Shown here one piece after another: positions 23,698 to 24,286 of a DNA stretch of 39,527 bases (the first letter of the stretch is position 1; the number at the start of each line of letters is the position of its first letter). The position numbers and the translations under genes were made by a program. The notes under the pieces were generated by a model. The model searched no databases. It saw nothing but the letters and a program-made list of their open reading frames with translations, and was not told where the DNA came from. Source of the stretch: a virus; UHGV virus genome UHGV-0152919; one strand, given 5' to 3'.

Positions 23698-24120
23698 ATG
23701 TCATTCTTTTCTACGTTAAAAACAGCTTTGTCTTTGAAGGAGAAACTTGCTGCTACTGGTGTTCTTGTTCTGATTTGCGCACTTGTTGGTGCTGGGTTTG
23801 CATGGGAACGTCATCAGCTAAAGCAAGCCATAGAGAAAATTGGCAGTCTTGATCAGGCTGTTAAGGAACGTGATAAGTCAATAATGGATCTTAACCAGAC
23901 CATTGAGACGATGAACAAAGCAGAGCAACATTTTCACAGCCAGGAAGTGAAAAATGAATCAGAACAAGCCAAGTATGCTGACAGGCAAATGGAACGAAAA
24001 GCTGAAGTTCAGAAACAACTGGTTGCGGCGGGTAATGTTCGCCAGCGCATTCCTGCTGACACTCAGCGGTTGCTCCGGGAGTCGATCAGCGAATTTAACG
24101 CCGACGCCGACAAAGGTTAA
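23698..24120 (+). CDS. ppfA: i-spanin (Rz)-like protein: N-terminal TM helix plus periplasmic coiled coil (P1 PpfA-like)
   Basis: AGGAGG RBS; TM segment ATGVLVLICALVGAGFAW; charged helical remainder; 3' end overlapped by a lipoprotein gene in another frame. Confidence 0.6.
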   Translation: MSFFSTLKTALSLKEKLAATGVLVLICALVGAGFAWERHQLKQAIEKIGSLDQAVKERDKSIMDLNQTIETMNKAEQHFHSQEVKNESEQAKYADRQMERKAEVQKQLVAAGNVRQRIPADTQRLLRESISEFNADADKG

Positions 24121-24286
24121 CCACCCTGCCCCCAAAAGTGCATTTATGTGCAGAATGCCAGAGTTTAGCAGTGAATATTTTGATGATCTGCCAGCGTATA
24201 TCCTCGATACAGAAACGATGCTGAAGGGGATTAACAGGAAGAATCGCAACGTTAATGATTACAACCGTGCTATCAGCGGTAACTAA
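23954..24286 (+). CDS. mlp: o-spanin (Rz1)-like outer-membrane lipoprotein (P1 Mlp-like); start uncertain (23954, 23975 or 24035)
   Basis: Lipobox LTLSGC; Pro-rich mature region with a Cys; begins inside the 3' part of ppfA in a different frame. Confidence 0.6.
   Translation: MNQNKPSMLTGKWNEKLKFRNNWLRRVMFASAFLLTLSGCSGSRSANLTPTPTKVNHPAPKSAFMCRMPEFSSEYFDDLPAYILDTETMLKGINRKNRNVNDYNRAISGN

Follow-up and report, generated by a model that had tools for sequence, protein, structure and literature searches.

A predicted overlapped two-component spanin pair, ppfA/mlp, encoded apart from the lysis genes in a P1-like virus genome

Introduction

Spanins are complexes that disrupt the outer membrane in the last stage of phage lysis. 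The lambda pair Rz/Rz1 is the prototype and, to our knowledge, the only spanin studied in depth. An initial annotation of a 39,527-nucleotide stretch of the virus genome UHGV-0152919 (the whole stretch analysed, referred to below as the window) described two overlapped ORFs, ppfA and mlp, as a spanin-like pair encoded apart from any lysis cassette. The locus raises the question of whether such an isolated pair is a spanin or serves the cell envelope in another way. The analysis given below indicates that ppfA/mlp very probably constitutes the two-component spanin of a P1-type phage.

The same assignment has been published. Exactly these proteins (P1 gp064/gp063) are listed as an overlapped i-/o-spanin by Kongari et al. 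2018 (PMC6139136, Table S1), and Bednarek et al. 2022 (PMC9025707) describe ppfA and mlp, from predicted features, as the spanin genes of P1, located in an unlinked operon of their own, crediting the identification of the pair to Summer 2007. The RefSeq name for mlp is "Rz-like spanin", and several GenBank records use Rz/Rz1 or Rz-like spanin. The pair is a real, well-conserved and ordinary predicted P1 spanin; as it is already catalogued, the result carries little weight beyond correct annotation.

Gene layout and genomic context

Both ORFs were read directly from the sequence, each from an ATG to a stop codon, and their coordinates are exact (Table 1). As initially described, the second ORF starts inside the 3' end of the first in another frame; it reaches 166 nt beyond the ppfA stop codon. 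For P1 gp064, the same Shine-Dalgarno sequence (AGGAGG) as that of ppfA in the window is given by Kongari 2018 (PMC6139136, Table S1). The Shine-Dalgarno sequence of mlp is AGGAGG in diverged relatives, as opposed to AGGAAG in the window.

Table 1. Coordinates of the features of the ppfA/mlp locus in the window.
Feature	Position	Strand	Basis and remarks
Shine-Dalgarno AGGAGG	23687..23692	+	5 nt 5' of ppfA ATG; direct sequence reading
ppfA, predicted i-spanin, 140 aa, identical to P1 gp064	23698..24120	+	ORF; phrog_89; Table S1 string match
PpfA transmembrane helix, residues 17-35	23746..23802	+	Kyte-Doolittle 19-residue maximum 2.35; within AF2 helix 13-110
PpfA heptad-repeat (coiled-coil-like) segment, residues 46-73	23833..23916	+	Hydrophobic at 7/8 a/d positions vs 5% elsewhere
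Shine-Dalgarno AGGAAG	23942..23947	+	6 nt 5' of mlp ATG; also in Kongari 2018 Table S1
mlp, predicted o-spanin precursor, 110 aa, 2 substitutions vs P1 gp063	23954..24286	+	ORF; phrog_30284, phrog_456; BLASTP vs P2 LysC
Dual-coding overlap, 167 nt	23954..24120	+	ppfA codons 86-140 and stop codon; mlp codons 1-56, +1 frame
Possible alternative internal mlp start	24023..24025	+	TTG here and in P1; ATG at same codon in diverged L003, L004, L006
PpfA C-terminal helix, residues 120-138	24055..24111	+	AF2 secondary structure; after conserved break R-Q-R-I-P
Mlp lipobox L-S-G-C, residues 37-40	24062..24073	+	Predicted lipidation at Cys40, first mature residue; Ser at +2
Mlp Cys66 of precursor (mature residue 27)	24149..24151	+	Only periplasmic Cys of the pair

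The window is P1-like and corresponds to P1 coordinates ~47.9-85.2 kb. Up to the mlp stop codon, the DNA of the locus is 99.3% identical to that of P1; PpfA is identical, and Mlp carries two changes in its 110 residues, A32V and K91M relative to P1. As in P1, upfC and upfB are neighbours of the pair, which lies beside repA. The genes ppfA and mlp stand in an operon of their own (upfC-upfB-ppfA-mlp) that adjoins the plasmid replicon and is tens of kb away from lyz and lydA/B/C. The block of P1 homology that begins upstream ends at position 24290, just past the mlp stop codon, and P1 upfA is replaced by a Gp49-family ORF and one further ORF. Positions 23400-24700 are 100% identical to phage vB_EcoM-813R1.

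Holin and endolysin genes had been stated to be missing from the window, and this was borne out. No lysis-category PHROG matched the tested ORFs of positions 84-2898 and 34646-35835 or the two ORFs of 24291-25163, and positions 37595-39527 are covered by P1 itself. In the P1-like phage JL22, lyz/lydD are located at 14.9-15.7 kb, lydA/B/C at 24.6-25.7 kb and Rz/Rz1 at 63.5-64.1 kb, which places the holin and endolysin genes ~38-48 kb from the spanin pair and beyond the span of the window. The pair is indeed unlinked to a lysis cassette, the usual but non-obligatory location of spanin genes. That ppfA and mlp form an unlinked operon is a feature for which P1 is already known; the lysis genes of this model phage are unusually scattered.

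The plp/upl genes and the non-P1 inserts were considered as a hidden spanin, holin or endolysin and rejected, as they have neither a match to a lysis PHROG nor another lipoprotein signal.

Features of PpfA and Mlp

The two-component spanin class was tested by the criteria of Summer 2007 and Kongari 2018. The N-terminal transmembrane helix initially noted in the upstream ORF was recovered, and the tail in front of it holds K8, K14 and K16, consistent with an N-in/C-out topology. In Kongari 2018 (PMC6139136, Table S1), the P1 protein is split into 36 N-terminal and 104 periplasmic residues; in PpfA, the periplasmic part (104 aa) is 36% charged and lacks Cys. In the AlphaFold2 model (mean pLDDT 69), residues 13-110 form one helix and residues 120-138 a second, with a break at 111-119 between them. 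PpfA has the N-terminal type II transmembrane domain and the mainly helical periplasmic domain by which an i-spanin of the two-component class is defined. The claim of a charged coiled coil held in part: a coiled coil is supported for about four heptads, because seven of the eight a/d positions of residues 46-73 are hydrophobic and the heptad score of this segment was reached by none of 300 shuffles, and the remainder is just a long, charged helix. The C-terminal helix is the best-conserved part of the protein (invariant columns R115-F133 in the family alignment) and is the predicted contact site for Mlp. The motif IPxDTxRxL...N-A-G is retained in the distant members P0222 and P0227.

In the second ORF, the lipobox LTLSGC was confirmed. 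The residue that follows the lipobox Cys is Ser rather than Asp, the +2 signal for retention in the inner membrane, as is required of an o-spanin, and variants of the lipobox (LSAC, LNAC, LNGC and LSSC) occupy the same place in relatives. The LipoP cleavage site of the P1 protein is at position 39, and the P1 o-spanin carries the flag 'Too long signal sequence' (PMC6139136, Table S1); a signal peptide of 39 residues is also unusually long in Mlp. Use of the internal start at 24023 would shorten it to the canonical 16-residue lipoprotein type; no Shine-Dalgarno sequence was found ahead of this candidate start.

Mature Mlp comprises 71 aa with 6 Pro, 5 of them within the first 31 residues, as compared with 10 Pro in the 40 aa of mature lambda Rz1. 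Of the proposed Pro-rich, Cys-containing mature region, the Cys is present (Cys66), but Mlp is only moderately Pro-rich relative to Rz1. In all relatives, the most distant ones included, Cys66 is conserved as part of the motif (F/S)MC(R/T)(M/L)P, and it provides the at least one periplasmic Cys expected of a spanin, PpfA having none. By analogy, it is the predicted site of a homodimer disulfide in Mlp.

In a rule-based scan of 932 start/ORF combinations in the six frames of the window, mlp was the sole ORF with a lipoprotein signal. The Kongari table gives no second spanin for P1 (PMC6139136, Table S1), and the check for another spanin pair was negative in both respects.

Relation to spanin families

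The best PHROG of PpfA was phrog_89, 'Rz-like spanin' (E 5.1e-25, residues 21-139), a match that is not fully independent, as P1 PpfA may itself be a member of this PHROG. The P2 i-spanin LysB also belongs to phrog_89 (5.8e-61), so that PpfA falls into the PHROG of P2 LysB. Mlp matched phrog_30284 (5.6e-77) and phrog_456 (1.3e-5), both 'Rz-like spanin', in which P2 LysC scores 5e-4 and 2e-31, respectively. When Mlp was compared with the P2 o-spanin LysC by BLASTP, 37% identity was obtained over 68 aa (E 4e-8). For every family member tested, spanin PHROGs were the best or only annotated matches. The spanin-like interpretation of the two ORFs, already published, is supported at the sequence level by the spanin PHROGs of both proteins and by the similarity of Mlp to LysC.

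Searches with curated families gave fainter signals. No Pfam family passed for PpfA or Mlp, with only sub-threshold coiled-coil noise for PpfA, and pairwise BLASTP of PpfA with P2 LysB yielded no significant alignment. The top NCBIfam match of PpfA was the LysB model TIGR03495 (18.2 bits, E 0.0023), far under the cut-off of 92.75 bits, and that of Mlp was NF038368 (P2_Rz1/LysC) with 14.9 bits, below the cut-off of 27 bits. A distant Mlp member from L091 reached 19.2 bits against NF038368, likewise below 27. The LysC model was the top match for three of four diverged Mlp relatives; the LysB model was among the matches of all three PpfA relatives and ranked first for one of them. When the PpfA and LysB families were aligned with hhalign, the probability was 39% (E 3e-4) and only the membrane-proximal part aligned. 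Because this alignment is weak, no LysB family membership is claimed for PpfA, which appears to bear a distant likeness to LysB; the similarity of the i-spanins may reflect shared architecture rather than descent. Mlp, as judged from its sequence, is a distant relative of LysC and not an equivalog member. Neither protein matched the lambda families phrog_13 and phrog_3198 at E <= 0.01.

The two genes are adjacent, with the o-spanin gene downstream and in the +1 frame as the criteria for arrangement demand (adjacent genes, whether embedded, overlapped or separated, with the o-spanin downstream or +1), and they are overlapped likewise in all relatives. As far as predicted features go, ppfA/mlp shows every one that defines a two-component overlapped spanin at the level of sequence.

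Comparison with known spanins

P2 LysB/LysC resemble PpfA/Mlp in their overlapped architecture and similar sizes (141 and 96 aa, respectively), and the alignment of LysC with Mlp spans the signal peptide, the lipobox, a P-T-P stretch and a Cys-x-M-P motif. The two pairs differ in that lysB/lysC directly follow holin Y, endolysin K and lysA in a lysis cassette, whereas ppfA/mlp are unlinked. Furthermore, the LysB family has invariant periplasmic Cys residues (C120 and C126) where PpfA has none, and P2 LysC has several Cys residues as compared with one in mature Mlp. The P1 spanin was placed in a family of its own by Kongari 2018 (PMC6139136, Table S1).

Lambda Rz and PpfA are both type II proteins of the inner membrane whose two helical stretches are divided by a break, and Rz1 and Mlp are both small outer-membrane lipoproteins that contain Pro and are encoded in the +1 frame. 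Unlike PpfA, Rz contains Cys residues in its periplasmic part that are used for disulfides. Rz1 is wholly embedded in Rz, whereas mlp extends past the ppfA stop codon; the lambda genes lie within the S-R-Rz cassette, unlike ppfA/mlp, and their PHROGs differ from those of PpfA and Mlp. A precedent for spanin genes located away from the holin and endolysin genes is T4 PseT.3/PseT.2 (PMC6139136). It is likewise a precedent for an o-spanin of larger size for which a helix is predicted at the C-terminus (PMC6139136). In T4 the two genes are separated, whereas ppfA and mlp overlap.

Proposed mechanism

As read from the sequence, the N-terminal helix of PpfA anchors the protein in the inner membrane, with the helical domain of ~100 residues extending into the periplasm, and Mlp bears a lipoprotein signal with Ser at +2. 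By analogy with lambda Rz/Rz1, export of Mlp would be followed by lipidation at Cys40 and cleavage by signal peptidase II, and Mlp would then be sorted to the outer membrane (inner leaflet), where it may dimerise through its single periplasmic Cys. The C-terminal parts of PpfA and Mlp, which are the most conserved regions of the two proteins, would then bind each other across the peptidoglycan meshwork. Following the same model, the peptidoglycan would be removed by Lyz, the SAR endolysin of P1, once the holin LydA has released it, and the freed complexes would collapse and thereby fuse the inner and outer membranes in the last step of lysis.

Expression and possible alternative functions

Expression signals and genomic neighbourhood bear on a different account, considered distinctly unlikely, in which PpfA and Mlp are an envelope pair with a job other than outer-membrane disruption and resemble spanins in architecture only. 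Such a pair could be expressed under sigma-70 or C1 control, in the prophage or early in infection, and could act with two upstream gene products, the PAAR-like UpfC and UpfB, to bring about exclusion, entry or modification of the envelope. In line with this account, a search based on LP23 for an Lpa-type late-promoter -22 box (AAGTNACTT, <=1 mismatch) found none in positions 19994-29214 of the window. For ppfA, the promoters predicted in the P1 record are all of the sigma-70 type, and the record has a C1 operator between upfC and uhr; a simple sigma-70 promoter scan of our own gave nothing convincing. The synteny with the PAAR-motif gene and upfB beside the plasmid replicon is constant, including in the most distant member of known context.

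The PpfA family is also very narrow: of 1.84 billion representative clusters, an exhaustive HMMER search matched 33 at E <= 1e-3; no P2 LysB-type protein was recognised among the inspected matches at this threshold, and word-indexed homologue searches retrieved only P1-like elements. Plating was unaffected by CRISPRi knock-down: the EOP was 1.3/1.2 for ppfA and 0.24/0.19 for mlp, and both genes were scored non-essential for P1 plaques (PMC10695390). Since endolysin R of lambda likewise came out as non-essential in that assay (PMC10695390), this result is weak evidence against a spanin role.

The same envelope account is at odds with the true similarity of Mlp to an o-spanin and with the rank of the spanin PHROGs among the annotated matches. 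The overlap, the signal for sorting to the outer membrane and the one conserved Cys exactly fit the rules for spanins; no other candidate spanin emerged from the Kongari table or from the lipoprotein scan of the window, and the isolated position of the genes has its precedent in T4. A related reading, regarded as very unlikely, holds that PpfA/Mlp is dispensable for P1 lysis and not a late product, that its genes share a C1- or sigma-70-controlled operon with those of UpfC and UpfB, and that it has another periplasm-spanning role (for example in DNA entry, exclusion or the plasmid-prophage state). The missing late-promoter motif, the constant synteny and the neutral CRISPRi outcome are compatible with it. 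Were it true, P1 would breach the outer membrane by some other means.

A role of PpfA/Mlp in the timing of lysis, rather than a mechanical action on the outer membrane, is highly improbable. It corresponds to an older reading of P2 lysB/lysC and P1 mlp and survives in annotation: the P1 record states 'possibly involved in regulation of lysis (by homology)', the P2 record states 'nonessential; affects timing of lysis' and 'regulation of lysis', and NCBI names include 'LysB family phage lysis regulatory protein'. These notes are, however, older than the spanin model, and P2 LysB/LysC are treated as a paradigm two-component spanin in PMC6139136. Moreover, the placement of one protein in each membrane suits a periplasm-spanning complex and not a regulator.

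Conservation and coding in the overlap

Both ORFs and the lipobox were intact in 80 of 80 P1-like IMG/VR loci, all of which are near-identical and P1-like, and are informative for such counts of intactness while adding no further context. Both mlp and ppfA belong to the 21 genes conserved across 77 P1-like phage-plasmids (PMC9603915). In relatives at ~60% identity, the overlapped pair is retained with the lipobox and the Cys, as is the mlp start codon with a strong Shine-Dalgarno sequence. Members found by profile only (P0222, 4e-22; P0227, 3e-8) keep the mlp frame, the overlap, the lipobox and the Cys.

Substitutions were counted among four diverged relatives. In the segment that codes for mlp only, 45, 34 and 135 substitutions fell on mlp codon positions 1, 2 and 3, respectively, and ppfA also shows a third-position bias (122/105/234). 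Within the overlap, substitutions track the ppfA frame (97 at third positions vs 38 and 36 at the others), and the DNA identity to diverged relatives is 0.76-0.79 there, as opposed to 0.60-0.61 in the part that codes for ppfA only. By this pattern, the mlp frame is evidently under purifying selection. Because mlp carries the only lipoprotein signal in the window, shows codon-position bias and is intact throughout the loci examined, it is more than a chance ORF. That mlp is a chance frame in and after ppfA with a fortuitous lipobox, as its treatment by automatic callers and the ppfA-directed substitutions in the overlap might suggest, has a vanishingly small probability and is effectively refuted by the codon-position pattern downstream of ppfA, by the persistence of frame, lipobox and second Cys to the profile-only members and by the homology of the product to LysC.

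Automatic gene callers usually miss mlp or call only a C-terminal fragment of 46-52 aa. Truncated or frameshifted database entries accordingly make up most of the Mlp alignment. This routine loss or truncation of an overlapped gene is where the locus is relevant to annotation.

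Genomic context of ppfA and mlp

The arrangement of ppfA (gp064 in P1) and mlp (gp063) as an overlapping gene pair was confirmed and its interpretation as a spanin pair is supported. Both have been published before and appear in public annotation, and the pair represents a known feature of P1-type phages. Since both halves of the window align to P1 (~47.9–85.2 kb, reverse orientation, 98–99% identity, 88–89% of the length), the sequence is identified as a segment of a phage-plasmid of the P1 type (Punavirus). Positions 23400–24700 and Escherichia phage vB_EcoM-813R1 share 100% identity, and P1 (NC_005856) shows 99.3% identity from 23400 up to position 24290. 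This last P1-homologous base lies just beyond the end of mlp, four bases after its stop codon, and P1 upfA is replaced at 24291–25163 by two other ORFs (Table). A Gp49-family gene also follows mlp in the diverged P1-like elements L003, L006 and L091, a blaCTX-M-55 insertion occupies this spot in the P1-like phage JL22, and repA/upfA, adjoining ppfA/mlp, is one of eight variable regions in 77 P1-like phage-plasmids (PMC9603915). On the other side, the order upfC-upfB-ppfA-mlp is retained even in L091, the most distant element with known context; upfC is likened to T4 gp5.4 in the P1 record. An accessory block at 84–2898 is absent from the compared P1 and JL22 loci.

The initial annotation had placed the pair apart from any lysis cassette, which is correct. 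The P1-homologous part of the window carries replication, partition, methylase, tail and head genes and no lysis genes, and in JL22 lyz/lydD (14.9–15.7 kb) and lydA/lydB/lydC (24.6–25.7 kb) are located away from Rz/Rz1 (63.5–64.1 kb). Stretches unmatched by the compared P1/JL22 loci comprise 84–2898 (in part), 24291–25163, 34646–35835 and 37595–39527. No lysis-category PHROG was obtained for the tested ORFs from 84–2898 and 34646–35835 or for the two ORFs of 24291–25163; 37595–39527 is matched by P1 itself. A 108-aa ORF (35554–35880, minus strand) lies shortly after repL, within a region that neither P1 nor JL22 shares, and encodes two hydrophobic stretches and the basic C-terminus YRKKARH (phrog_3772, no function assigned in PHROG); its product is predicted to be a small membrane protein, holin-like in shape only. 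At 17593–18012, the ORF that takes the place of P1 plp ('putative lipoprotein') has no PHROG match and fails the lipoprotein-signal filter in the window, and annotated tRNA genes overlap or adjoin the plp region in P1 and JL22.

Gene structure and protein topology

The coordinates initially given for the pair were exact, and mlp indeed begins inside the 3' part of ppfA in a different frame (Table). The N-terminal transmembrane helix ascribed to PpfA was borne out by a hydrophobic maximum at residues 17–35; the periplasmic part comprises 104 residues, of which 36% are charged and none is Cys. The coiled coil was supported for about four heptads, through a heptad pattern at residues 46–73 with hydrophobic residues at 7 of 8 a/d positions (reached by 0 of 300 shuffles). 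The N-terminal tail contains three lysines. AlphaFold2, supplied with an 18-sequence alignment, predicted helices at residues 13–110 and 120–138 separated by a break (111–119), in a model of moderate confidence because the mean pLDDT was 69.

A rule-based six-frame scan of the window covered 932 start/ORF combinations with a minimum length of 50 codons, and only mlp carried a lipoprotein-type signal. Its lipobox L-S-G-C places the Cys at residue 40, with Ser at +2, and one additional Cys is found at precursor residue 66. While the lipoprotein signal and the Cys were as described, the mature region was only moderately Pro-rich compared with lambda Rz1, because its 71 residues include 6 prolines (5 within the first 31 residues). 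The mlp ATG and its strong Shine-Dalgarno sequence are retained, shifted by one codon, in relatives whose PpfA is ~60% identical (L003, L004, L006), and in these elements the codon equivalent to the internal TTG of P1-type mlp (24023–24025) is ATG. The TTG is a possible internal start that would give a canonical 16-residue signal peptide (M-R-R-V-M-F-A-S-A-F-L-L-T-L-S-G before the Cys) versus the 39-residue one, which Kongari et al. marked as 'too long'.

Table. Features in the window and mlp fragments called in related loci.
Feature	Sequence	Coordinates	Strand	Remarks
ORF, no predicted function	window	427-951	-	accessory block
ORF, no predicted function	window	912-1151	-	accessory block
PAPS-reductase-like ORF	window	1344-2222	-	phrog_424, 1e-92
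242-aa ORF	window	2226-2954	-	phrog_874
C1 repressor operator (Op68/Odmt of P1)	window	22479-22495		reverse complement ATTGCTCTAATAAATAT; divergent uhr-upfC intergenic region
upfC	window	22577-22861		PAAR-motif protein; PF05488 26 bits, just under 27-bit cut-off; phrog_281, 2.5e-30
upfB	window	22813/22870-23658		phrog_1559, no function assigned in PHROG
ppfA	window	23698-24120		ATG to stop; 140 aa; AGGAGG ahead of start
mlp	window	23954-24286		ATG to stop; 110 aa; +1 frame; 167-nt ppfA overlap; AGGAAG six bases upstream
Gp49/Sf6 gene 66-family ORF	window	24298-24657		PF13876, E 1e-33
133-aa ORF	window	24728-25129		phrog_1453, no function assigned in PHROG
mlp fragment	L002 (JL22)	18479-18619		annotated Rz1
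mlp fragment	L003	4449-4589
mlp fragment	L006	4431-4589
mlp fragment	L093	6467-6607
mlp	L004			no call

Assignment to spanin families

PHROG labels were anchored by scanning the known spanins of P2, lambda and T7. The best match of PpfA was phrog_89 'Rz-like spanin' (5.1e-25, residues 21–139), followed by two other i-spanin PHROGs, and Mlp matched phrog_30284 (5.6e-77) and phrog_456 (1.3e-5), both 'Rz-like spanin'. P2 LysB was assigned to phrog_89 (5.8e-61) and P2 LysC to phrog_456 (1.7e-31), with a marginal match to phrog_30284 (5.4e-4), whereas the lambda and T7 spanins matched other PHROGs. In addition, Mlp is 37% identical to P2 LysC over 68 residues (E 4e-8), in an alignment that takes in the signal peptide, the lipobox, a P-T-P stretch and a Cys-x-M-P motif. 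The spanin PHROGs of both proteins and this similarity support the spanin-pair interpretation. The P2 genes lysB/lysC overlap like ppfA/mlp but are placed after the holin, endolysin and lysA genes.

The link to P2 is weaker for the i-spanin than for the o-spanin. Pairwise BLASTP of PpfA against P2 LysB gave nothing significant, and hhalign of the two families returned a probability of 39% (E 3e-4) for the membrane-proximal part only. The NCBIfam LysB and LysC models were the top matches of PpfA (18.2 bits; cut-off 92.75) and Mlp (14.9 bits; cut-off 27), both far below the cut-off. Among diverged relatives, the LysC model ranked first for three of four Mlp proteins, the fourth having no match, and the LysB model for one of three PpfA proteins, with lower ranks in the other two. 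Neither protein matched any Pfam family. In our reading, ppfA/mlp probably acts like the overlapped P2 spanin LysB/LysC, to which it is distantly related, yet forms its own family, in agreement with Kongari et al. 2018 (PMC6139136), where the two proteins are both placed in a family named 'P1'.

Expression signals and conservation

A role of ppfA/mlp outside lysis is unlikely, although the -22 box of P1 late promoters (LP23 version AAGTNACTT, ≤1 mismatch) was not found within 19994–29214 and CRISPRi knock-downs of ppfA (EOP 1.3/1.2) and mlp (EOP 0.24/0.19) were both scored non-essential (PMC10695390). The latter result is weak evidence against a spanin role, because it derives from knock-downs only and lambda endolysin R was likewise scored non-essential in the same assay (PMC10695390). 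A simple scan for sigma-70 promoters upstream of ppfA yielded nothing convincing; the P1 record lists two predicted sigma-70 promoters inside upfB.

Divergence was assessed against the three P1-like elements with ~60% identical PpfA (from Cronobacter, Klebsiella aerogenes and Salmonella). Substitutions at codon positions 1/2/3 numbered 122/105/234 in the ppfA-only part (ppfA frame) and 45/34/135 downstream of ppfA (mlp frame), the latter distribution indicating purifying selection on the Mlp protein. Within the overlap, DNA identity was 0.76–0.79, versus 0.60–0.61 in the ppfA-only part, and substitutions tracked the ppfA frame. Both ORFs and the lipobox were intact in 80 of 80 P1-like IMG/VR loci (22 distinct Mlp sequences), and a comparison of 77 P1-like phage-plasmids counts mlp and ppfA with the 21 genes termed 'extremely conserved' (PMC9603915).

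The family is narrow, since only 33 clusters, mostly fragments, were recovered at E ≤ 1e-3 when 1.84 billion representative proteins were searched exhaustively with a profile. The most distant full-length members, P0222 (4e-22) and P0227 (3e-8), are each accompanied by a lipoprotein gene that overlaps in the +1 frame and encodes the motifs LFLL(T/S)LS(A/S)C, (F/S)MCT(M/L)P and N-(R/N)-K-N-x-x-V-N-A-Y-N. Both genes are thus maintained together as a unit, and the possibility that mlp is a chance ORF was dismissed.

Predicted mode of action

By analogy with lambda Rz/Rz1 (PMC9025707, PMC6139136), inner-membrane PpfA and lipidated, outer-membrane Mlp would bind each other C-terminally to give a complex that spans the periplasm, with Mlp forming a putative disulfide-linked dimer via Cys66; upon removal of the peptidoglycan by Lyz, the complexes would draw the membranes together and the outer membrane would be destroyed. 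Of this scheme, the topology signals, helical periplasmic domain, outer-membrane sorting signal, conserved Cys and conserved C-terminal parts of both proteins are evident from the sequences.

Previous annotation of the pair

The abstract of Summer 2007 reportedly counts P1 among the classic phages without annotated Rz/Rz1 equivalents before that study. The P1 record explains ppfA as 'possible periplasmic function' and mlp as 'membrane lipoprotein precursor, by homology; possibly involved in regulation of lysis'. In RefSeq NC_005856, the mlp product is termed 'Rz-like spanin' and ppfA is left as 'PpfA', and other P1-like records name the pair Rz/Rz1. In Table S1 of Kongari et al. 2018 (PMC6139136), P1 gp064, identical in sequence to PpfA of the window, is entered as an overlapped i-spanin whose periplasmic part has 104 residues and 0 Cys, with the remark 'one in TMD'. 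Bednarek et al. (PMC9025707, Introduction) labelled ppfA as o-spanin and mlp as i-spanin; judged by the predicted transmembrane helix in PpfA and lipobox in Mlp, these labels are reversed.

The overlapped o-spanin gene is systematically mis-annotated. Gene callers and some GenBank records contain only a 46–52-aa C-terminal mlp fragment devoid of signal peptide and lipobox, or miss the gene (Table), and this fragment constitutes a separate PHROG (phrog_15803, 'lipoprotein').
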